Below, one piece after another: positions 5,634 through 40,468 of a stretch of 64,000 nt of DNA. The stretch covers positions 11,016-75,015 of the forward strand of contig DVNX01000113.1 in assembly GCA_018714045.1 (NCBI GenBank), written 5' to 3'. The translations under genes were made by a program, and so were the position numbers. The DNA is from Candidatus Ornithoclostridium faecavium. Its GTDB lineage: Bacteria > Bacillota > Clostridia > Christensenellales > UBA3700. The notes beneath the pieces were generated by a model. That model saw only the letters and a list, made by a program, of their open reading frames with translations, was not told where the DNA came from and did no database searches. How positions within the stretch are numbered: the first letter of the stretch is position 1; the number at the start of each line of letters is the position of its first letter.

Positions 5634-7211
5634 TTATTTTCCGCTGTCGCCGTAGTTGGAAAGCACTCTCGCGGACGGGTCGGATACGTCGCAGCCCTTC
5701 CAGCTCTTGTTGGGCATCCAGAAGTCCTTTATCATCTCTCCCTGCCCCGGATAGTACTTTTCGAATATCTCTCTGTACAGCAGCGATTCTTTGGTGAACG
5801 GGCGCGCGTGCGCATGCCGCGCGCGTCTTTCTTCATATTCTTTATCCGAATAATACCCGCCAGCGTACTCTTTCAGGTAGTCGACCATCGAGTGCCCTAC
5901 CGCGTCAGAAAAAGCCGCTTTTTCTCTCATCAGTATATCGTAAGGGAGCCAGTCTCCTTCGAAAGCCTTTCTTAAAAGGTACTTGCCCTTTCCGTAGACG
6001 TTCATCTTTATCGCGGGATCGAGGCTCATCACGTATTTCACGAAGTCGAGGTCTCCGAAAGGAACTCTCGCTTCGAGAGAGTTTACCGATATGCACCTGT
6101 CCGCGCGGAGCACGTCGTACATATAAAGTTCTCTCAATCGCTTCTGGGCTTCCTTCTGAAATTCCTCTGCGCTCGGCGCGAAATCCGTATACTTATAGCC
6201 GAAAAGCTCGTCCGATATCTCTCCCGTCAGAAGAACTCTTATATCCGTCGTCTCGTGTATCGCCTTGCACACCAGGTACATTCCGATGCTGGCGCGCACC
6301 GTCGTTATATCGAAAGTTCCCAGTATCTTTATTACCGTATCGAGTGACGCGAGAACTTTTTCCTTGTCTATTATGACCTCTGTATGTTCGCTGCCGATAT
6401 AGTCCGCGACTTCGCGTGCGTATCTTAAATCTATCGCGTCGCCGCTCATGCCTATCGAAAAGGTCTTTATCGGCTTATCGCTCTTCTTAGCCGCGACCGC
6501 GCATACCAGCGAGGAATCAAGTCCGCCGCTCAGAAGAAATCCTACTTTCGCGTCCGCGACAAGGCGCTTTTCTATGCCCGCTACCAGCTTTTCGCGGATA
6601 TTCTTGCAGGCTTCATTGACGCCGTCTTTGCTTACTTCTTCCGCCGCCGCGATATCGCAGTATCTTACGAACTTGTCGCCGTCGTAGTAGCACCCGGGAG
6701 GAAACGGCGTTATTTTGTCCGTAAGTCCTACGAGGTTTATCGCCTCGCTCGCGAACATTATCGCGCCCGTTTCGTCATAGCCGTAAAAGAGCGGTCTTAT
6801 CCCTATCGGATCCCTTGCGGCGATAAACTTGCCGCGCTTTGCGTCATATATCACTAAGGCGTATTCCGCGTCCAGCATAGCGAACATATCCGTTCCGTAC
6901 TCCTTATAGAGAGGCAGGAGCACCTCGCAGTCCGAATCGCTTTTGAACGCATACTTGCCTTCAAGCGCCTTTCTGAATTTATCGAAGCCGTATATCTCGC
7001 CGTTGCATATGAGATAATCTCCGTCAAGGCTGAACGGTTGCATACCGTCGGGCGTAAGTCCCATTATAGCCAGTCTGTGAAAGCCCGTCAGCCCCGCGCC
7101 GATATCGATCACACGGCTGTCGTCGGGTCCTCTCGACACTGTGCGGGAAAAGCCTTCGTCGAATTTTTCCCGCGGCGCGTCCTTTCGGCAATATGCCATT
7201 ATCGAACACAT
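5634..7211 (-). CDS. asnB: asparagine synthetase (glutamine-hydrolysing), class II Ntn amidotransferase
   Basis: 525 aa with N-terminal Met-Cys (MCSI...) and the SGGLDSS PP-loop. GGAGGGG SD lies inside the end of glnN. Confidence 0.9.
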   Translation of the reverse strand: MCSIMAYCRKDAPREKFDEGFSRTVSRGPDDSRVIDIGAGLTGFHRLAIMGLTPDGMQPFSLDGDYLICNGEIYGFDKFRKALEGKYAFKSDSDCEVLLPLYKEYGTDMFAMLDAEYALVIYDAKRGKFIAARDPIGIRPLFYGYDETGAIMFASEAINLVGLTDKITPFPPGCYYDGDKFVRYCDIAAAEEVSKDGVNEACKNIREKLVAGIEKRLVADAKVGFLLSGGLDSSLVCAVAAKKSDKPIKTFSIGMSGDAIDLRYAREVADYIGSEHTEVIIDKEKVLASLDTVIKILGTFDITTVRASIGMYLVCKAIHETTDIRVLLTGEISDELFGYKYTDFAPSAEEFQKEAQKRLRELYMYDVLRADRCISVNSLEARVPFGDLDFVKYVMSLDPAIKMNVYGKGKYLLRKAFEGDWLPYDILMREKAAFSDAVGHSMVDYLKEYAGGYYSDKEYEERRARHAHARPFTKESLLYREIFEKYYPGQGEMIKDFWMPNKSWKGCDVSDPSARVLSNYGDSGK

Positions 7212-7222
7212 AAGCCCCTCCG

Positions 7223-9316
7223 TTATCTGACGCCGAACAGCAATTCGCCGTAAGTGGGGATCGGCCAGTATTCCGCAGCCGTCTTGGTTTCCGCTTCGTC
7301 CACGACCGCTCTCAGAGCGCTCATCTTGGGAAGGATCCCGTCTCTTATATAATCCGCTTCTGATATTATATCACAAAAATCCTTTACGTGAACGACGGCT
7401 TCTTTCAATTCGCTTGCCAAAGCCTGTCCTCTTTCCGTCAGTGACGACAAATTTTTTACCAGCCCGTGTTCGTAATCGCAACTTATATCCGGCATGAAAT
7501 TTTTCTTTGAAATTGCCGTTTCGCAAATTTTCGAAACGTATTTTTCGACCGCGGGAATGAGCTGCTTTTCAGCCATATCGACCATCGTCTCAGCCTCTAT
7601 AAGCACAGCCTTGCAGTAGTTGTCCAGCATTATATCGCACCTGGACTTAAGCTCCGTCTCGCTGTAAACGCCCTGCGAGGTCAGCATATCGACGTTCTTT
7701 TTGTCGAGGAGGTGCGGCATGCAGTCGGGAGTCGTGCGGTAGTTGGAAAGACCTCTCCTTTCCGCTTCTTTTATCCACGCTTCGTCATAACCGTTGCCGT
7801 TGAATACGATGCGCTTGTGGTCTTTTATCGTCTTCTTTATCATAAGGTGCAGAGCCGTGTTGAAATCCTCTACCCCTTCCAGTCTGTCGGCGTACTGTTT
7901 GAGTGATTCCGCGACAGCCGCGTTCAGCATTATGTTGGCGCACGCTATGCTGTTGGACGAGCCGAGCATTCTGAATTCGAACTTGTTGCCCGTAAAAGCG
8001 AAAGGAGACGTCCTGTTTCTGTCCGTCGTGTCCTTCTGAAAAAGAGGAAGCACGTCTACGCCCAGCTTGAGCTGAGTTTTCTTTTTCCCGCTGTACGGCT
8101 TATCGTTTTCGATAGCTTCGAGAACGGCGGTAAGTTCGTCGCCTAAGAATACCGAAAGTACCGCGGGCGGAGCTTCGTTCGCGCCCAGTCTGTGGTCGTT
8201 ACCCGCAGTAGCGACCGCGATCCTCAGAAGATCCTGATAATCGTCCACCGCCTTAAGCACCGCGCACAGAAATAACAGAAACTGCGCGTTTTCGTGCGGC
8301 GTTTCGCCGGGAGTGAGCAGGTTTACGCCCTTGTCCGTCGCCATAGACCAGTTGTTATGCTTGCCGCTTCCGTTTACGCCCGCGAACGGCTTTTCGTGAA
8401 GAAGGCATACGAGACCGTGACGGGAAGCGACCTTCTGCATTATCTCCATCGTCAGCTGGTTGTGGTCGGTAGCGATGTTGGTCGTGCTGTATATAGGCGC
8501 GAGTTCGTGCTGAGCGGGAGCGACTTCGTTGTGTTCGGTTTTAGCGAGCACGCCCAGTTTCCAAAGCTCCTCGTTGAGATCTGCCATATACTCTTCCACT
8601 CTGGGCTTGATGACCCCGAAATAGTGGTCGTCGAGTTCCTGACCCTTGGGAGCTTTAGCGCCGAAAAGAGTGCGACCCGTATAAATGAGGTCTTTTCTCT
8701 TATCGTACATTTCTTTGTCTATAAGAAAGTATTCCTGTTCGGGTCCCACAGAGGTACGCACGCATTTGACGTTCGTGTTGCCGAAAAGCTTAAGAATTCT
8801 CATCGCCTGTCTGTTCAGCGCTTCCATCGAACGCAGAAGCGGAGTCTTTTTATCCAGCGCTTCGCCGCCGTACGAACAGAACGCGGTCGGGATGCAAAGG
8901 GTCTTTCCCTTGATGAACGCGTAGGAGGTCGGATCCCACGCGGTATATCCTCTCGCCTCGAAAGTCGCTCTCAGTCCTCCCGACGGGAAGCTGGAAGCGT
9001 CGGGCTCACCTTTTATCAGTTCTTTTCCCGAAAACTCCATTATCACTCTGCCGTCGGGTGCGGGAGTAATGAAGCTGTCATGCTTTTCAGCCGTGATACC
9101 GGTAAGAGGCTGGAACCAGTGCGTGTAGTGCGTCGCGCCGTGAGCTACCGCCCAGTCCTTCATGGCATTCGCGACCGCGTTGGCTACCGAGATGTCGAGT
9201 TGCGACCCTCTGTCGATAGTTCTTTTCAGAGACCTGTACACGTCCGCAGACAACGTTGCTCTCATCACCCTGTCGTCAAAGACCATGCTGCCGAAATAAT
9301 CCGATACCGTTTGCAT
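7223..9316 (-). CDS. glnN: glutamine synthetase, type III
   Basis: About 697 aa from [15 protein letters not shown]..., with the length and N-terminus typical of GSIII. GGAG SD precedes the ATG at 9316. The 22 extra codons of the track ORF are a translation of the leader terminator. Confidence 0.9.
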
Positions 9317-9338: not shown

Positions 9339-9387
9339 AAAAAAGGGCAACGGCGCCTATGCTTTTTCAACATAGACGCCATTGCCC
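9339..9387 (-). terminator. intrinsic terminator in the glnN leader (attenuator)
   Basis: Minus strand reads GGGCAATGGCGTCTATG-ttgaaaaag-CATAGGCGCCGTTGCCC followed by TTTTTT. It lies between the promoter and the glnN SD. Confidence 0.75.
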
Positions 9388-9405
9388 GTTTGATTTATGT
9401 TTCGG

Positions 9406-9434
9406 ATTATACACAACGAAAAAACGTTTGTCAA
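9406..9434 (-). promoter_or_regulatory. sigma-A type promoter of the glnN operon
   Basis: Minus strand has TTGACA (9434..9429), a 17-nt spacer, then TATAAT (9411..9406). Confidence 0.7.
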
Positions 9435-9501
9435 CGGATTTTTGCAAAATTTTCTGAGAAATTTTTTATTGCCTTTTCTCGGATTTTTTGCGTTTTTTGA
9501 G

Positions 9502-9531
9502 TTGACGGACGCGATTTCATAATGCTATAAT
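9502..9531 (+). promoter_or_regulatory. sigma-A type promoter of the split-gltS/glnA/ANTAR operon
   Basis: TTGACG (9502..9507), an 18-nt spacer, then TATAAT (9526..9531). Confidence 0.65.
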
Positions 9532-9546
9532 CTGTCAAACGGGCAA

Positions 9547-9597
9547 AGGCGTTCGTTTTTGAGGATAACTGTCCTCGAAAACGAGCGCCTTTTTTTG
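9547..9597 (+). terminator. intrinsic terminator in the glt-operon leader (attenuator)
   Basis: An approximately 22-bp stem (AGGCGTTCGTTTTTGAGGA / TCCTCGAAAACGAGCGCCT) with a 6-nt loop and a T7 run. It lies 125 nt upstream of the first ORF. Confidence 0.75.
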
Positions 9598-9721
9598 CGT
9601 TGTGTCCGATGTGACGATGAGCATTAGTCGCTATCGCGTAATGACGCTTGTTGCATAAAGCTAAATTAATTAATCGATACCACTTATCCGTGCTATACGG
9701 ACAAGAAAGAGAGGTTTTTAT

Positions 9722-10816
9722 ATGTTATTGAAAGAAGGTCAGGTAAGGATCCCGTCGGGTTGCGCGGTATCTGCGGTGATTTCCCGAAAAGGCGAACTTA
9801 TGAGCGGCGAAAAAATAGTCGCCAGCATGGTGCCTATGCACGAGCGGTCGAACGGGCTGGGAGGCGGCTTCGCAGGTTACGGCATATATCCCGATATGGC
9901 TGAGTTTTACGCCTTTCATATGTTCTTCGAAAACAGAGAATGTCAGAAAGAATGCGAAGCGTATTTAAAAGAAGGCTTCGAAATAGTAAAAGCAGAACCT
10001 GTTCCCGTCCGCAAGATACCCGCGATAACGGACGAACCTGTCATTTTCAGATATTTCCTCTCCCCTCTGCGTTCCCGCATATCCGACGCGCAGGTGGACG
10101 AACGCGAATTCGTAGCACGCGCGACTATCCATATCAACGTATGCATAGACGGCGCTTACGTTGTATCGGGCGGCAAGAATATGGGCGTGTTCAAGGCTGT
10201 CGGCTTTCCGGAGGACGTAGGCGAATTCTACCGTCTGGACGAATACTCCGCATACTGCTGGACGGCGCACGGAAGATATCCGACCAACACCCCGGGCTGG
10301 TGGGGCGGCGCGCACCCGTTCGGACTTCTCGACTACACAGTCGTCCACAACGGCGAAATATCCTCTTACGACGCCAACCGCAGATATATAGAAGGTTACG
10401 GCTATAAATGCACTCTGCAGACGGATACAGAGGTGTTCACTTATATCGCCGATTACCTTATCAGAAAAAAAGGACTGACCCCCGAAGAAACGGCAAGCGT
10501 TATCGCCGCGCCCTTCTGGTCGACGATCGAAAACAAACCTCCCGAGGAACGGAAAAAGCTGACCTACCTCAGAAACGTATTTTCGGGACTTCTGGTCACG
10601 GGACCTTTTTCGATAATCCTCGGCTTTACAGGCGGGCTCATGGCTCTCAACGACAGACTTAAGCTCCGCTCCATGGTCGTCGCGGAAAAGGACGACAAAG
10701 TTTTCATCTCAAGCGAAGAAGCGGCTATCCGCGTTATGGAACCCGACGCGATAAACGTCCGTGCGCCCGAAGGCGGCGAACCCGTAGTAATAAGAGTTGA
10801 GGAGGGCGCATACTGA
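9722..10816 (+). CDS. glutamate synthase-type class II (Ntn) glutamine amidotransferase domain protein
   Basis: 364 aa. Candidate nucleophile Cys in IPSGCAVSAV. Resembles the GltB N-terminal domain and is the first of three domain-sized ORFs. Confidence 0.75.
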   Translation: MLLKEGQVRIPSGCAVSAVISRKGELMSGEKIVASMVPMHERSNGLGGGFAGYGIYPDMAEFYAFHMFFENRECQKECEAYLKEGFEIVKAEPVPVRKIPAITDEPVIFRYFLSPLRSRISDAQVDEREFVARATIHINVCIDGAYVVSGGKNMGVFKAVGFPEDVGEFYRLDEYSAYCWTAHGRYPTNTPGWWGGAHPFGLLDYTVVHNGEISSYDANRRYIEGYGYKCTLQTDTEVFTYIADYLIRKKGLTPEETASVIAAPFWSTIENKPPEERKKLTYLRNVFSGLLVTGPFSIILGFTGGLMALNDRLKLRSMVVAEKDDKVFISSEEAAIRVMEPDAINVRAPEGGEPVVIRVEEGAY

Positions 10817-12321
10817 TGCAGGCAGATTATATTTATCCGACGTACGAAGTAATAAGAAAAGACGAGCGTTGCAACAAATGCGGACTTTGCGTGCGCGAAT
10901 GTTCTTACGGCGTACACTACCGCTCTGATGACGGCAGATTTATATTGTCCGACGATTCGAAATGCGTGAACTGTCAGCGCTGCGTGGCGACCTGCCCTTC
11001 GCACGCGATAAAGATAGTAAAAAGCAACTGCGATTTCAGAGAAAACTTCAACTGGTCGGGAGACTCGATAAAGGAAATAATGAAACAGGCGGGAAGCGGC
11101 GGAGTACTGCTCTCTTCGATGGGCAATCCTCAGCCTTACCCCGTATACTGGGACAAACTTCTGATCAACGCGTCGCAGGTCACAAACCCGCCGATAGACC
11201 CTTTGAGAGAACCTATGGAAACGCGCGTATTCCTGGGGAAGAAACCCTCCGACATAGCGCGGGACGAACACGGGCAGCTGATTTCCGATCTTCCTCCCCG
11301 TCTTACGCTTGAGCTTCCTATACTCTTTTCCGCAATGAGTTACGGCTCGATAAGCTACAACGCGCACGCAGCTTTAGCCGCCGCCGCTACCGACCTCGGC
11401 ACCTGCTACAACACGGGAGAAGGCGGACTTCACGAAAACTTCTACCGCTACGGCGCAAACACGATCGTTCAGGTCGCTTCGGGCAGATTCGGCGTACACA
11501 AAGACTACCTCGAAGCGGGCGCGGCTATCGAGATAAAAATGGGTCAGGGAGCTAAACCCGGCATAGGAGGGCACCTGCCCGGCTCCAAGATCGTCGGCGA
11601 CGTTTCGCGTACCAGAATGATTCCCGAAGGATCAGACGCGATATCCCCCGCTCCCCACCACGACATATATTCAATCGAAGATCTTCGTCAGCTCGTGTTC
11701 TCGCTCAAAGAGGCGACAGAATACAAAAAGCCCGTCATAGTAAAGATAGCCGCCGTCCACAATATCGCCGCGATAGCCAGCGGCATAGCGAGAAGCGGAG
11801 CCGACGTCATCGCGATAGACGGTTTCAGAGGTGGCACGGGCGCGGCGCCTACGCGTATACGCGACAACGTGGGCATACCCGTCGAACTCGCGCTCGCCGC
11901 GGTAGACACGAGGCTGAGAGACGAAGGCATAAGAAACGACGTCTCTCTCATCGTCGGCGGCAGCATACGCAACTCTACCGACGTCGTAAAGGCGATAGCC
12001 CTCGGCGCGGACGCCTGCTATATCGCGACCGCCGCTCTCATCGCGATGGGCTGTCATATGTGCAGGAACTGCCAGAGCGGCAAATGCAACTGGGGAATAG
12101 CTACTCAGAACCCCGAACTCGTTAAACGCCTCGACCCTGAAGAAGGTCGGCGCCGCTTAGTCAACCTGCTTACGGCATGGAAACACGAGATCACGGAAAT
12201 AATGGGCGGCATGGGCATAAACTCGATAGAAGCGCTGAGAGGCAACCGGCTTATGCTGAGAGGCATAGGACTGACAGAAAAGGAACTGTCCGTCCTCGGC
12301 GTCGCGCACGCAGGAGAATAA
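10816..12321 (+). CDS. glutamate synthase FMN/Fe-S domain protein with N-terminal 2x[4Fe-4S] ferredoxin module
   Basis: Ferredoxin motifs CNKCGLCVRECS and CVNCQRCVATCP, followed by a GltB central-domain-like sequence (GEGG, GAKPG..GGHLPG, DGFRGGTGAAP). Confidence 0.8.
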   Translation: MQADYIYPTYEVIRKDERCNKCGLCVRECSYGVHYRSDDGRFILSDDSKCVNCQRCVATCPSHAIKIVKSNCDFRENFNWSGDSIKEIMKQAGSGGVLLSSMGNPQPYPVYWDKLLINASQVTNPPIDPLREPMETRVFLGKKPSDIARDEHGQLISDLPPRLTLELPILFSAMSYGSISYNAHAALAAAATDLGTCYNTGEGGLHENFYRYGANTIVQVASGRFGVHKDYLEAGAAIEIKMGQGAKPGIGGHLPGSKIVGDVSRTRMIPEGSDAISPAPHHDIYSIEDLRQLVFSLKEATEYKKPVIVKIAAVHNIAAIASGIARSGADVIAIDGFRGGTGAAPTRIRDNVGIPVELALAAVDTRLRDEGIRNDVSLIVGGSIRNSTDVVKAIALGADACYIATAALIAMGCHMCRNCQSGKCNWGIATQNPELVKRLDPEEGRRRLVNLLTAWKHEITEIMGGMGINSIEALRGNRLMLRGIGLTEKELSVLGVAHAGE

Positions 12322-12361: not shown

Positions 12362-13084
12362 ATGATTATATTGAATGCGCGGGCGACTGACAACGCCGCT
12401 CTCAACGAAAGCGTAAGAAACGCGAAAGAAGATTGCGAAATATACGGCTGTCTGGGCGAAAGGTTCATAGGAACGGGACTTTCTGACAAGACGGTCAGGA
12501 TAAAAGGTATACCCGGCAACGCGCTGGGCGCATACCTTAACGGCGCGAAGATATACGTCGACGGCAACGCGCAGGATGCCGTAGGCGATACGATGAACTG
12601 CGGAGAGATAGTAATAAACGGTAGCGCGGGAGACGCGCCCGGTTACGCGATGCGCGGCGGCAAGATATATATCAGAGACAACGCGGGCTACCGTGCAGGT
12701 ATACATATGAAAGAATACGACGGCAAATTTCCCGTCATGATCGTAGGCGGCAGATGCGGCAGCTTTATGGGAGAATACCAGGCGGGCGGACTGATAGTCG
12801 TGCTGGGACTCAATAAGGACGGCAAACGCATAGTCGGCAACTTTCCTTGCGCGGGAATGCACGGCGGAAAAGTGCTTCTCAGAGGCGACGCGAGCGGGGT
12901 GCGCTTCCCCGACAAAGTCACCGCGAGACGAGCCGACCGCGAAGATCTGCTCTCCGCCGAAAGCTATATACGGGAGTTCTGCGAGGCGTTCAGGATGAAT
13001 GCGGACGAGATACTCTCTTCCCCGTTTACGGTCGTGACCCCGGACAGCGCAAACCCCTATAAGCGCATGTATGTAGAAAACTAA
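12362..13084 (+). CDS. GXGXG-motif protein (glutamate synthase C-terminal beta-helix domain)
   Basis: 240 aa with repeated G-x-G-x-G beta-helix turns (GIPGNALGAYLNGAKIYVDGNAQDAVG...). Confidence 0.8.
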   Translation: MIILNARATDNAALNESVRNAKEDCEIYGCLGERFIGTGLSDKTVRIKGIPGNALGAYLNGAKIYVDGNAQDAVGDTMNCGEIVINGSAGDAPGYAMRGGKIYIRDNAGYRAGIHMKEYDGKFPVMIVGGRCGSFMGEYQAGGLIVVLGLNKDGKRIVGNFPCAGMHGGKVLLRGDASGVRFPDKVTARRADREDLLSAESYIREFCEAFRMNADEILSSPFTVVTPDSANPYKRMYVEN

Positions 13085-13099
13085 CACAAAGGTGATATC

Positions 13100-14311
13100 A
13101 TGAAATATACGTCAAGCGAAGTTCTTCAATACGTCAGAGAGGAAGACGTAAAGTTCATACGTCTCGCATTCACGGACGTCTTTGGCAATCAGAAAAACAT
13201 ATCGGTAATGCCGTCCGAACTCGAACGCGCGTTTAAGTTCGGCATAGCGATAGACGCTTCCGCGATCGCAGGCTTCGGCGACGTCGCGCACAGCGATCTT
13301 TTTCTGCACCCCGACCCGTCCACTCTTACCGTGCTTCCGTGGAGACCCGAACACGGCAAAGTCGTCAGAATGTTCTGCTCCGTGCTCTGCCCCGACGGCT
13401 CGCCTTTCGTAGCAGATACGCGCGGGATACTGATAAAGGCTGTCGAAACGGCTAAGCAAAAGGGCTACTCTTTCAACTTCGGCACCGAAATGGAATTTTA
13501 TCTGTTCAGGCAGGACGAACACGGCTACCCGACGAAGATACCATACGACAGCGCGGGATATATGGACGTCGCGCCTCTCGACAGAGGCGAAAACGTCAGA
13601 AGAGAAATATGCCTCACCTTAGAGCAGATGGGCATTATGCCGGAAGGCTCCCACCACGAGGAAGGTCCCGGGCAGAACGAAATAGATTTCCGCTACTCCG
13701 ACGCGCTGACCGCCGCAGACAATGCCGTGACTTTCCGCTCCGTAGTTCAGACGATAGCGGCGAGAAACGGACTTTACGCCGATTTTTCGGCTAAACCTCT
13801 TGCGGATGCACCCGGAAACGGTCTGCATATCAACGTATCCGTAGACGGCGGAAGACACGAAGAGACGATACCTTTCGTCATCGCAGGACTTCTGGACAAG
13901 ATACGCGATATCACCGTATTTCTGAACCCGACCGAAAGCTCTTACACACGCCTCGGCAACAACAAAGCGCCGCGCTATATCTCATGGTCGGGCGAAAACC
14001 GCTCTCAGCTGATAAGGATACCCGCCGCGGTCGGAGAATACAGACGCGCAGAACTGCGCTCCCCCGACTCTCAGGCAAACCCGTATCTCGCGTTCGCGCT
14101 CATGATATACGCGGGGCTTTACGGCATAGAAAACAAACTGCCGCTCCCTGAGCCCGCGGACGTAAATCTGTACACCGCAGACAAAAAGACTCTTTCGAAA
14201 TTCAAAACGCTTCCCGCCGATCTTGCAGAAGCCGTATTGGCGGCAACGACGAGCGGGTTCGTAGCAGACAGCCTTCCCGAAGAAGTTATCGCGGCATATT
14301 GCAAAGGCTAA
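13100..14311 (+). CDS. glnA: glutamine synthetase family protein (short type I-like)
   Basis: 403 aa with GS motifs FGTEMEFYLF, SHHEEGPGQNEIDF, NGLHINVS, SSYTRL and SWSGENRS. Confidence 0.8.
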   Translation: MKYTSSEVLQYVREEDVKFIRLAFTDVFGNQKNISVMPSELERAFKFGIAIDASAIAGFGDVAHSDLFLHPDPSTLTVLPWRPEHGKVVRMFCSVLCPDGSPFVADTRGILIKAVETAKQKGYSFNFGTEMEFYLFRQDEHGYPTKIPYDSAGYMDVAPLDRGENVRREICLTLEQMGIMPEGSHHEEGPGQNEIDFRYSDALTAADNAVTFRSVVQTIAARNGLYADFSAKPLADAPGNGLHINVSVDGGRHEETIPFVIAGLLDKIRDITVFLNPTESSYTRLGNNKAPRYISWSGENRSQLIRIPAAVGEYRRAELRSPDSQANPYLAFALMIYAGLYGIENKLPLPEPADVNLYTADKKTLSKFKTLPADLAEAVLAATTSGFVADSLPEEVIAAYCKG

Positions 14312-14344
14312 CCAACCAACTTACGGCAAAAGTCGGAGGAAACA

Positions 14345-14929
14345 ATGGACTTTAAGGAACGTGTTTACAGCGTGCTTACCGTGTCTGACGGAGAGAAGTT
14401 TTCCGCTTCTCTGTCTCCTTTGCTCCCCGAAAGAACGTTCTCGCCCGTTGTCCGCGTTCCCGACGTCGCGACAGCAAAGCGCGCTATGCTGGAAAGAGAA
14501 TACGACATAGTGCTGATAAACGGCACCCGCGCCGACGACCGCGCCGCGAAACTGGCGATAGACGTATGCTCCGACAAAAGCTCGGTCGCCCTTCTTTTCG
14601 TAAAACGTGAATTATATGCGGAAATATTCGCTAAGGTATCCGACTTCGGCGTACTTACCGTTCCCCTTCCGTCGTCGCCCCAGATGGTAGTCCAGGCTCT
14701 GGACTGGGCGCGCGCTACGAGAGAACGCATGAGGCGCTACGAAAGATCCGCCCAGACCGTCGAACAGAAAATGGAAGAGATACGTGCCGTAAACCGCGCG
14801 AAATGGCTTCTTATCGACGTACTTAAAATGACTGAAGCGGATGCGCACAGATACATTGAAAAACAGGCGATGGACAGATGCGTTTCAAAACTCGAAGTCG
14901 CAAAAGGCATCATAAATACGTATAAGTGA
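14345..14929 (+). CDS. ANTAR-domain RNA-binding regulator with a receiver-like N-terminal domain
   Basis: C-terminus EIRAVNRAKWLLIDVLKMTEADAHRYIEKQAMDRCVSKLEVAKGII is an ANTAR signature. The N-terminal half is receiver-like but degenerate. Confidence 0.8.
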   Translation: MDFKERVYSVLTVSDGEKFSASLSPLLPERTFSPVVRVPDVATAKRAMLEREYDIVLINGTRADDRAAKLAIDVCSDKSSVALLFVKRELYAEIFAKVSDFGVLTVPLPSSPQMVVQALDWARATRERMRRYERSAQTVEQKMEEIRAVNRAKWLLIDVLKMTEADAHRYIEKQAMDRCVSKLEVAKGIINTYK

Positions 14930-15288: not shown

Positions 15289-16113
15289 ATGCGTTTTAAA
15301 TACGGATGCCGCGACGGCGTACCTATAATGCTGGGATATCTGACCGTTTCTTTCACCTTCGGCGTAAGCTGCGTTGCTAAAGGCTTCGCCTGGTGGATGC
15401 CCCTTTTATGTTCTTTTACCAATTTCACGGGTACGGGACAATTTGCGGGAATGGATCTGATAGCGGCAGGCGGCAGCGTGGTCGAACTCATCGCCACGAT
15501 GCTGGTCATAAACGCGCGTTACTCGCTGATGGGAATATCTCTTTCACAGAAACTGGAAGGTAAGACGACTCTGTTGCAAAGACTTGTCATCGCCTTCGGT
15601 CTTACGGACGAAAACTATGCGGTCGCGATAAGACAGCCGCGCGACGTCTCTTTCGAATACTTTCTGGGCGTATCTCTGACTTCTTTTTCGGGTTGGGTCG
15701 CGGGCACTCTTCTGGGGACGCTCGCGGGAAACGTACTTCCCGAAAGTCTGCTCAGCGCTTTCGGCATAGCGCTGTACGCAATGTTCATCGCGATAGTCGT
15801 CCCACCGTGCCGCACCTCGAAGGCGATTTTCACGGTAGTCCTCACCGCGATAGCGATGAGCTGCCTTTTCTATTACGTTCCCGTACTTAACGGTCTTTCG
15901 TCGGGCTGGTCGATAATAATATGCGGAATAGTCTCTGCTCTTATCGGAGCGATATTCTTTCCGATAAAACAGGACGGCGACAGCGAAAACAAACCAAAAG
16001 ACGGAGTGATATTCGGCGGTAAAAAAAGCAACGAATACCCCGAAGAAACGTATACTGGTCGCGAAAATGTCGCGGGCGACGCAAATAACGACGCCAAAGG
16101 AGGCGCGCTGTGA
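15289..16113 (+). CDS. azlC: AzlC family branched-chain amino acid permease component
   Basis: 274 aa and polytopic, with N-terminus GVPIMLGYLTVSFTFGV typical of AzlC. Overlaps azlD by 4 nt. Confidence 0.8.
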   Translation: MRFKYGCRDGVPIMLGYLTVSFTFGVSCVAKGFAWWMPLLCSFTNFTGTGQFAGMDLIAAGGSVVELIATMLVINARYSLMGISLSQKLEGKTTLLQRLVIAFGLTDENYAVAIRQPRDVSFEYFLGVSLTSFSGWVAGTLLGTLAGNVLPESLLSAFGIALYAMFIAIVVPPCRTSKAIFTVVLTAIAMSCLFYYVPVLNGLSSGWSIIICGIVSALIGAIFFPIKQDGDSENKPKDGVIFGGKKSNEYPEETYTGRENVAGDANNDAKGGAL

Positions 16114-16427
16114 GAGTCTTAGACGTAGTATGGAAAATAGCTCTTATGGCGGCGCTGACCTACCTTTGCCGCGCTGTCACGCTGGTACTTGTACGCAAGA
16201 AGATAACCAACGTGCGGATATTGTCGTTTTTCGAATACCTGCCTTACGGCGTGCTCAGCGCAATGGTGTTTCCCGTCGTGTTCTACTCTTCGGCAAGTCT
16301 TGTATCCGCGCTCGTCGGCACTCTCGTCGCGGTCGTGCTTTCTTTCTTTAAAAGAGGTCTTCTGACTGTCGCGCTGTCAGCTACCGCCGCGGTTTTCGTT
16401 ACGGAACTTATAATGACTCTCGTTTAA
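16110..16427 (+). CDS. azlD: AzlD family branched-chain amino acid transport protein
   Basis: 105-aa hydrophobic protein translationally coupled to azlC. Confidence 0.75.
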   Translation: MRVLDVVWKIALMAALTYLCRAVTLVLVRKKITNVRILSFFEYLPYGVLSAMVFPVVFYSSASLVSALVGTLVAVVLSFFKRGLLTVALSATAAVFVTELIMTLV

Positions 16428-16530: not shown

Positions 16531-16938
16531 TTATTTGTATTCCTCTTCGGATACCATATCCGCGCCGGGCGCCCATTTAGCAACGCTGGCGATGCCCGCC
16601 TTGCAAGTAGCTTTGCTGGCGTAGCCCTCTTCAGATATGCAAAGAAGGTTGCCGTTGTTGGCTTTCAGACGGTAGCGGAATTTTCCCTGTTTGTCGAGAT
16701 ATATCTCGTACTTGGGGTTGGTAAGAGTCTCATATCCACGTGCGAGAGTCTGATCCTCTATCTTGTCTATAGTGCAGAATTTGCGGACGGAATCAATACC
16801 CGCCTTACAGCTTTTGAGATCTGAATACGCGCCTTCGCAAACCGCGATCGTCTCCTTGTTGGGAGCTTTTAGTCTGAAATTGAAATTACCCTTAGCCGTC
16901 TTGTAATAGACGAAAGTACCTTTAAGTTCGTATGCCAT
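16531..16938 (-). CDS. YegP-like protein (tandem DUF1508 repeats)
   Basis: 135 aa with two internal repeats (FRLKAPNKETIAV.EGYS.LKSCKAGIDSV and YRLKANNGNLLCISEGYASKATCKAGIASV). Confidence 0.7.
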   Translation of the reverse strand: MAYELKGTFVYYKTAKGNFNFRLKAPNKETIAVCEGAYSDLKSCKAGIDSVRKFCTIDKIEDQTLARGYETLTNPKYEIYLDKQGKFRYRLKANNGNLLCISEEGYASKATCKAGIASVAKWAPGADMVSEEEYK

Positions 16939-40025: not shown

Positions 40026-40468
40026 TACAGCACCTCTACTTTGCCACCTGCTTTTTCAATTGCTTCCGCAGCCGACTTTGTGAATTTGTTTGCGCGTACG
40101 GTAACCTTTTTGGTCAGCTCGCCTTTGCCCAGGACCTTAACGCCGTAAGGCAGGACCTTGCTCAGAACGCCGCTGGAAAGGAGAACTTCCGCGTCGACAA
40201 CGTCGCCGTCGTTGAATCTTTCCAGATCGCAGACGTTGACGATAGAGTACTCTTTCTTGAAGTAGTTGTTGAAGCCTCTTTTGGGGATTCTTCTGACGAG
40301 GGGCATCTGACCGCCTTCGAAACCGGGTCTTACGCCGCCGCCGCTTCTCGCCCACTGTCCTTTATGACCCTTGCCGGAGGTCTTTCCGAGACCGGAACCG
40401 ATACCTCTGCCGAGTCTTCTGGACTCTTTCTTTGCTCCCTGTGCGGGTGCCATGTCATGTAATTTCAT
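40025..40468 (-). CDS. rplO: 50S ribosomal protein L15
   Basis: 147 aa; [30 protein letters not shown]. Confidence 0.96.

Follow-up and report, generated by a model that had tools for sequence, protein, structure and literature searches.

We analyzed a 64-kb stretch of a Candidatus Ornithoclostridium faecavium contig (DVNX01000113.1; the whole stretch is called the window here), in which two transcription units for nitrogen assimilation diverge from one intergenic region, and focused on the leaders of both units, where a short hairpin with a six-nucleotide loop (hexaloop) overlaps an intrinsic terminator. The leftward unit begins with glnN, which encodes a type III glutamine synthetase (GS); asnB and guaA follow at distances of 12 and 19 nt from the preceding stop codons and, therefore, are probably co-transcribed with it. 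The rightward unit encodes a glutamate synthase (GOGAT) split over three open reading frames (ORFs), a second GS of 403 amino acids (aa) and a 194-aa regulator with an ANTAR domain. Pfam searches confirmed the identities that the first-pass annotation had given to the flanking genes (glnN on one side, the split glutamate synthase on the other), and a pattern scan recovered the two back-to-back near-consensus promoters that it had described (TTGACA-17-TATAAT at 9434..9406 on the minus strand and TTGACG-18-TATAAT at 9502..9531 on the plus strand). All features are listed in Table 1.

Each leader contained one copy of the box TCAAACGGGCAAWGGCG, which occurred exactly twice in the window, at 9535..9551 (+) and 9393..9377 (-). 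Both sites and both 17-nt copies had been correctly placed before; the repeat finder extended them to an inverted pair of 18 nt (9535..9552 and 9393..9376) with 17 of the 18 positions identical, and the distances from box to -10 element were 3 and 12 nt, as previously counted. The hairpin proposed within the box, a 4-bp GGGC/GUYY stem around the hexaloop AAWGGC with the two outer pairs swapped between copies, was also present, except that the stem in the plus leader is in fact 8 bp long (AAACGGGC/GUUCGUUU). In the minus leader, UCAA (9393..9390) and UUGA (9370..9367) add a lower stem of 4 bp across an internal loop from the core stem. Both leader terminators proved to be present and strong, and only their stem lengths had to be corrected, to 19 pairs instead of 17 in the minus leader and to 20-21 instead of approximately 22 in the plus leader.

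Pattern scanning and folding bore out the earlier claim that the hairpin overlaps the 5' arm of the terminator; the two folds are mutually exclusive. The 5' arm of the minus terminator contains the hairpin core and loop, and the first 14 nt of the 5' arm of the plus terminator are the loop and 3' strand of the hairpin. According to folding predictions, the 8-bp hairpin of the plus leader (-6.5 kcal/mol) is the minimum free energy (MFE) structure of the nascent RNA at 22-34 nt. The full leader folds as the terminator (-38.6 kcal/mol); with the hairpin enforced, the energy was -21.0 kcal/mol and no hairpin was left adjoining the U-run.

Table 1. Features of the two divergent units and their leaders (positions in the window).
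Feature	Position	Strand	Basis and remarks
guaA	4071..5615	-	Pfam; 19 nt behind preceding stop codon
asnB	5634..7211	-	Pfam; 12 nt behind preceding stop codon
glnN, type III glutamine synthetase, first gene of leftward unit	7223..9316	-	Pfam GSIII_N, Gln-synt_C, Gln-synt_C-ter
Minus-leader intrinsic terminator	9339..9387	-	19-bp stem 9387..9345, T6 9344..9339; MFE -35.8 kcal/mol
Minus-leader putative antiterminator hairpin	9367..9393	-	GGGC 9387..9384 / GUCU 9377..9374, hexaloop AAUGGC 9383..9378
-10 TATAAT, glnN promoter	9406..9411	-	Predicted +1 near 9399
-35 TTGACA, promoter of glnN-asnB-guaA	9429..9434	-	Pattern scan, 12/12 match with -10, spacer 17
-35 TTGACG, promoter of glt/GS/ANTAR operon	9502..9507	+	Pattern scan, 11/12, spacer 18, TG extension
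-10 TATAAT, glt/GS/ANTAR promoter	9526..9531	+	Predicted +1 9537-9539
Plus-leader putative antiterminator hairpin	9537..9558	+	AAACGGGC 9537..9544, hexaloop AAAGGC 9545..9550, GUUCGUUU 9551..9558
Plus-leader intrinsic terminator	9545..9596	+	20-21 bp stem 9545..9592, T7 9590..9596; MFE -38.6 kcal/mol
Split glutamate synthase, GATase_2 subunit	9722..10816	+	Pfam
Split glutamate synthase, Fer4+Glu_synthase subunit	10816..12321	+	Pfam
Split glutamate synthase, GXGXG subunit	12362..13084	+	Pfam
403-aa type I-alpha-like glutamine synthetase	13100..14311	+	Pfam, catalytic motifs
194-aa pseudo-receiver + ANTAR regulator, NitR-like, proposed antiterminator	14345..14929	+	Pfam ANTAR

The ANTAR protein is a member of a large 194-aa family (3631 hits) and was found on many gut-metagenome contigs with identical gene order. 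A scan for its gene in species-representative genomes gave 80 loci, the closest of which came from metagenome-assembled genomes of Christensenella/Christensenellaceae (91-80% identity) and the remainder from many Clostridia, including Oscillospiraceae, Acutalibacteraceae, Lachnospiraceae and others. A GS homolog immediately preceded the ANTAR gene in every locus with enough upstream sequence, and the GS-like/ANTAR pair usually closed a split-GOGAT operon divergent from glnN. The leaders of gltA-like and glnN genes across these loci shared a short core located right after the -10 element and at the foot of a terminator. We defined a module as this core together with a T-run and a hairpin in which the 3' arm base-pairs with the core; 172 raw modules were reduced to 116 after curation (80 loci plus the window), and alignment on the loop yielded 108 distinct 30-mers. 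The core of the box is retained in orthologous leaders: in related loci, many Clostridia carry the same element at an equivalent position.

Family-wide, the core was RGCAANGGCGUY, and a stem of 5-8 bp surrounded the hexaloop AANGGC. The columns C-A-A-N-G-(G/A)-(C/U)-G-U were invariant in the 108 sequences, including A1, A2 and G4 of the loop. Within the 17-nt box, only RGCAANGGCGUY is general; the TCAAAC half is specific to the Christensenellaceae lineage and corresponds to the lower 5' strand of the stem, which reads AAUGA or AAA in other genera. The five inner pairs were formed in 94-100% of the sequences, with exchanges between G:C and A:U and between A:U and U:A. The first pair was C:G in 108/108 and the second a conserved wobble (G:U in 106, A:U in 2); the third was GC in 65, AU in 37 and GU in 6 sequences (unpaired in 0), the fourth AU in 59, GC in 43 and GU in 5 (unpaired in 1), and the fifth AU in 59, UA in 37, UG in 3 and CG in 2 (unpaired in 7). 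The hairpin stood up to the alignment of related leaders that had been suggested as a check: its covariation score was 0.475, compared with 0.226 for column shuffles (0 of 500 reached 0.475) and 0.08-0.18 for slid partners. The second-pair G.U becomes G-C and U-A in the terminator, which would bias the default fold to termination. The stem sequences were more conserved than pairing alone demands.

When 108 related sites were used to train a covariance model (3 of the rows being the window's own or identical sequences), the model found only the two leader sites in the whole window (plus leader, 26.7 bits, E = 1.4e-5; minus leader, 25.0 bits, E = 5e-5). The next match, at 16 bits, corresponded to the minus terminator read as its mirror image, and all others had E > 0.4. 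Even with permissive E-values, no Rfam family matched this region; all hits were terminator-shaped noise, the best reaching 29.6 bits where the gathering score is 54.3. Two simpler candidate searches were discarded. The exact core GGGCAAAGGCG also occurs at 40120..40130 (-), inside a gene and with no terminator, and was judged a chance match; the relaxed core pattern GCAANGRYG alone gave 401 hits, being too permissive in coding DNA.

The stems fell into two classes. Class A (AAUGAGC-AAAGGC-GUUCAUU) was found before gltA-like (42 cases) or GS-like genes (3 cases), and class B (AAAGGC-AAWGGC-GUCUUU) before glnN (50 cases), asnB, gdhA and purC. The lineage of the window had its own compensatory change, a C:G pair in place of the class A U:A. 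Class-B modules, often in tandem, preceded the NADP-glutamate dehydrogenase gene gdhA and, in L085, purC, and another module of L085 was located between gdhA and glnN (L085 at 588/513 (-) and 6424/6346/4922 (-), L014, L032, L038, L043, L045 and L053). A class-A-like module (AAAGAGCAAAGGUGUUCU plus terminator, with a consensus promoter) was present at ~15033 (-) in L038, before the genes for ATP synthase subunits a/b (14023-14919), and is either a further member of the regulon or a look-alike. Among loci lacking GOGAT, the GS-like/ANTAR operon had no recognizable module of its own in L010, L028, L036, L041, L053 and L077, so autoregulation of the regulator is not universal; a class-A module upstream of the GS-like gene was retained in L064, L066, L081, L085 and L086.

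A sigma-70-like promoter lay directly upstream in 97 of the 116 modules, and its -10 element ended approximately 7 nt upstream of the first paired base in class A and approximately 9 nt upstream of it in class B; the hairpin would therefore begin at roughly the predicted +1. Fourteen modules were second copies that followed a first module at a distance of 65-150 nt; for 12 of these, no promoter was detected upstream. Further modules were intercistronic, for example after gdhA and before glnN. All modules were oriented with transcription and situated at the foot of a terminator. The promoter-less second copies and the intercistronic modules argue for an RNA element. Together with the fixed orientation, the terminator overlap and a pairing covariation that includes G.U, they support the original view that the box acts in RNA and is not a DNA operator.

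The two-hairpin architecture known from other ANTAR targets was not observed. ANTAR substrates were described as pairs of hexaloop hairpins, both with A1 and G4, in which the second hairpin overlaps the terminator (Ramesh 2012; PMC3369931). In the 116 modules, a second A1/G4 hexaloop hairpin was not enriched either upstream (9 versus 13.6 expected) or inside the terminator (12 versus 8.1 expected). One hexaloop per terminator was the rule, and the canonical P1 + P2 arrangement of Ramesh 2012 was lacking; the single hairpin that had been noted as a caveat is thus a property of the whole module family and not a weakness of the window locus. The hexaloop with A1 and G4 on a stem of at least 3 bp, as defined in the same study, was found in the 108 sequences. 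More recently, an ANTAR dimer was shown to contact one hexaloop, and the minimal motif was redefined as a single hexaloop; whether such sites act in nature was left open (Walshe 2022; PMC8934654). This minimal motif, with G4 and a paired closing stem, was present here.

Next, we considered the regulator itself. It matched Pfam ANTAR (PF03861) with 52.7 bits against a cut-off of 27.3 over residues 139-190, aligned over its full length with Rv1626, EutV, AmiR and NasR, and had no NCBIfam model for its family that we could find. EutV residues K143, K147, K149 and E160, which contact RNA, and the essential M172 aligned with the invariant R147, R151, K153, E164 and M176; Y164 of EutV, which stacks on G4, aligned with the invariant H168, and AmiR also has a His there. 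In the receiver domain, the DLVIMD segment of Rv1626 with the phospho-acceptor Asp aligned with DIVLIN, and N59 occupied this position in at least 90% of the family. S14 was invariant where the acidic pair after beta-1 is expected, so that both the Asp at the end of beta-3 and the acidic pair of a phosphorylatable receiver were missing. Judged by these residues, the regulator is a pseudo-receiver protein like AmiR, and because of this, "response regulator" signaling based on phosphorylation appears unlikely. As for the adjacent 403-aa GS, residues 4-400 aligned with type I-alpha GS structures (E 1e-107) and the catalytic motifs were intact, and the protein was shorter than canonical GlnA and scored 335 bits with the NCBIfam GlnA model (cut-off 429). 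The idea of an inactive sensor paralog was not supported, given the intact catalytic motifs; the protein may be a working GS and, as the invariant upstream neighbor, is a candidate signal-input partner of the regulator.

The closest characterized counterpart appeared in Geobacter sulfurreducens, where electrophoretic mobility shift assay (EMSA) and mutant analysis demonstrated binding of GnfR to CAGGCAAGGGCGCC, which is located at the foot of the terminator in the nifH leader (Ueki & Lovley 2010; PMC2995071). The core is CAGGCAANGGCGCC there and RGGCAAWGGCGUY here. In both cases one conserved box per terminator lies upstream of and overlaps the leader terminator of nitrogen-metabolism operons (nif/glnK/amtB in Geobacter), and the regulator consists of a receiver and an ANTAR domain; the box binding by EMSA concerns GnfR. 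Among the features of the GnfR/NitR type, the core GGCAANGGCG at and overlapping the foot of the leader terminator, a position upstream of nitrogen-assimilation genes and an ANTAR regulator in the genome were found in the window. However, GnfR works as a genuine response regulator with GnfK as its kinase, whereas the window receiver has N59 at the acceptor Asp and no kinase nearby. In addition, GnfR serves sigma-54 promoters and nitrogen-fixation targets in Desulfuromonadia, whereas the clostridial promoters here are sigma-70-like, the hairpin starts from the predicted +1, and the targets are GS, GOGAT, AsnB and GuaA (GdhA and PurC in relatives). A literature search for the motif string found the Geobacter paper alone.

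Among clostridia, NitR of Clostridium saccharobutylicum (Stutz et al. 2007, as summarized in PMC6316151 and PMC4676874) is reported to act as an antiterminator that induces GS/GOGAT genes when nitrogen is limiting, and an equivalent cluster is noted in C. thermocellum. By this description, the glnA-nitR-gltAB cluster resembles the window locus in having the ANTAR gene directly downstream of a GS gene and adjoining GOGAT genes. It differs in its two-subunit GltAB and antisense RNA (three GOGAT ORFs here), and the window adds a type III GS as a major target and a shortened GS partner of 403 aa. Ramesh 2012 had also predicted many sites before nitrogen genes, and Table S2 of that study places such hits next to GS and ANTAR genes in several Firmicutes; the clusters named are those of Alkaliphilus, Carboxydothermus, Desulforudis and Desulfotomaculum (PMC3369931). 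Overall, these likenesses support the assignment of both leaders to the known GnfR/NitR kind of nitrogen ANTAR attenuator, in a new lineage.

Compared with dual-hexaloop targets (EutV/eut, NasR/nasF and AmiR/amiE; PMC3369931, PMC8934654), the window family shares the A1/G4 hexaloop hairpin overlapping the 5' arm of a terminator, the presence of the ANTAR gene within the locus under control and the connection with nitrogen metabolism. In contrast, it has a single hexaloop without the P1 'recruitment' hairpin, a longer stem (5-8 bp versus a minimum of 3) of conserved sequence, a more constrained loop (AANGGC) and a hairpin predicted at the extreme 5' end of the transcript. AmiC-AmiR and NasS-NasT likewise combine an ANTAR protein carrying an unphosphorylated receiver-like domain with a gene for a ligand-binding protein, and AmiR aligns with the window regulator family and has the same His at the G4-stacking position. 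Their partner genes encode sensors of the periplasmic-binding-protein fold, whereas here the partner is a GS homolog, whose interaction with the regulator we purely infer. A 2025 review of RNA-binding antiterminators leaves GS-linked ANTAR systems aside: its text contains neither 'glutamine' nor 'glutamate synthase', and its table comprises AmiR, NasR, EutV and Rv1626 alone.

Based on these comparisons, we consider it likely that each leader is a protein-dependent, ANTAR-type transcription attenuator read by the protein encoded at 14345..14929, and the leader hairpin is very probably the docking site of this regulator. The proposal of the first-pass annotation that ANTAR control operates through the hexaloop hairpin thus gained comparative support from covariation, orientation, terminator overlap, GS/ANTAR synteny and identity with the GnfR core. 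In the model, transcription would start a few nucleotides before the short hairpin (5-8 bp stem, hexaloop AANGGC). Without bound protein, the RNA would refold into the far more stable terminator (approximately -36 to -39 kcal/mol), because the loop and 3' strand of the hairpin are the first ~14 nt of the terminator 5' arm, and transcription would stop before glnN or the GOGAT genes. The active 194-aa protein would bind and hold the nascent hexaloop hairpin and block the terminator, and both units, glnN-asnB-guaA and GOGAT-GS-ANTAR, would then be read through, the second in an autoregulatory manner. Since the receiver lacks the phospho-acceptor Asp, activity of the regulator would probably depend not on a kinase but on a ligand or partner protein, the most plausible candidate being the upstream GS.

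Several observations weigh against this model. The minus-leader hairpin has a C-A mismatch at the fifth pair and a low predicted stability (-2.5 to -3.9 kcal/mol). EutV requires the canonical dual hairpin for antitermination, and this arrangement is absent here. Several backbone-contact arginines of EutV (R142, R168, R175 and R177) are not conserved in the regulator. Much of the covariation separates stem class A from class B and, therefore, may reflect fewer independent evolutionary events than the cell counts suggest. Because the loci were collected via the ANTAR gene, motif and regulator were to some extent bound to be found together. GS/GOGAT-type modules before gdhA in some genomes are unexpected for a simple nitrogen-limitation switch. 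Finally, start sites, termination, binding and nitrogen response at the window locus are all predictions.

The hairpin could also be a real antiterminator bound by another trans-acting factor, either a second ANTAR paralog (possibly one per stem class) or GS itself. That the two stem classes are sharply distinct and correlate with operon type would fit such a reader, as would a conservation of stem sequence beyond the needs of pairing, even though EutV touches the stem through its backbone only; moreover, the visible portion of the genome is 64 kb. However, the loops of both classes are identical, and it is the loop that gives ANTAR proteins their specificity in the EutV-RNA structure, where the stem is contacted via the backbone alone (PMC8934654). 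Both window leaders share the lineage-specific 5' strand of the stem, as expected for a single reader protein, the GS/ANTAR pair is the sole regulator-like gene set conserved in synteny, and GnfR binds an identical core. Hence this alternative appeared improbable to us.

If the box instead worked at the DNA level, as an operator that overlaps the start and is bound by a transcription factor (GlnR/TnrA-like or other), with terminators that are unrelated or act as constitutive attenuators, its location 3-12 nt from the -10 element and the inverted arrangement of the two copies around divergent promoters would be readily understood. Its distance to the -10 element is variable, however, and its orientation follows the transcript; the 14 second modules lie 65-150 nt downstream, 12 without a detected promoter, and some modules lie between genes; compensatory changes keep the RNA pairing, and a conserved G.U is meaningless in duplex DNA; and the element is always fused to a terminator. 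We regard this reading as scarcely credible. A 5'-terminal stem-loop is a known mRNA stabilizer in Firmicutes, and the location of the hairpin at about +1 in 97 of the 116 modules would suit an element that mainly stabilizes or processes mRNA, or a small-molecule riboswitch. This is very unlikely, as a hairpin of 20 nt offers too little room to form a ligand pocket and had no Rfam match, the internal promoter-less copies are not 5'-terminal, and neither the invariant A1/A2/G4 loop nor the mandatory terminator overlap is needed for stabilization. Both the operator and the riboswitch readings were rejected on these grounds.

The attenuator model read by the ANTAR protein can be extended to a more general scheme, which is speculative and which we consider possible rather than probable: a widespread natural class of single-hexaloop antiterminators, in which one long-stemmed hairpin exactly at the transcript 5' end stands in for the P1/P2 pair and is read by a phosphorylation-independent pseudo-receiver ANTAR protein, with the invariantly adjacent GS as the nitrogen sensor by direct interaction and the two stem classes tuning thresholds (GOGAT/GS versus glnN/gdhA/asnB). 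If true, the GS-sensor scheme would have counterparts in the GS-TnrA/GlnR system of Bacillus and the AmiC-AmiR system of Pseudomonas. To our knowledge, almost nothing is known about nitrogen control in Christensenellaceae and many gut Clostridia, where the classical GlnR/TnrA and NtrBC systems are not evident. Our analysis offers a testable regulatory model for ammonium assimilation in these bacteria (GS, GOGAT, AsnB and GuaA, with GdhA in relatives) and would unite two isolated items of the literature, the box read by GnfR in Geobacter and the NitR protein of solventogenic clostridia, in one RNA motif. With the motif structure defined (hexaloop AANGGC and covarying stem), regulon prediction becomes possible; the more than 100 natural putative single-hexaloop ANTAR sites on terminators represent the situation left open by Walshe et al. 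2022, and the conserved gene pair for GS and the pseudo-receiver-ANTAR protein is a candidate sensor-effector couple. What appears to be new is modest but useful: the covarying motif structure, more than 100 single-hexaloop sites at a predicted +1, operon-linked stem classes and a GS-paired regulator that is putatively phosphorylation-independent.

Some additional features of the locus were noted. The true start of glnN is ATG 9316, with the ribosome-binding site AAAGGAGAA just upstream; the ORF scan had given an in-frame ATG at 9382, which falls within the minus-leader terminator, and gene callers could therefore extend glnN 22 codons too far, into the leader. After the plus terminator, TTTTTGCGTTGTGT (9592-9605) is an inverted copy of the minus-promoter spacer ACACAACGAAAAAA (9411-9424; 14 nt, 93%), and TTTTTTGCGTT is present three times in the intergenic region (9484-9503 versus 9591-9601). 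These intergenic copies may have arisen when the two leaders were duplicated or evolved in concert. In relatives, an extra gene for a Pyr_redox_2 NAD(P)H oxidoreductase of approximately 418 aa lies between the Glu_synthase and GXGXG genes (4762-6018 in L016; most of L014-L078), and the lineage of the window, with L007-L009, L011 and L013, is without it. Downstream of the ANTAR gene, the window contains AzlC/AzlD branched-chain amino-acid exporter genes at 15289-16427 (+) and a DUF1508 gene at 16531-16938 (-); the AzlC neighbor is kept in the closest relatives, L008 and L009.

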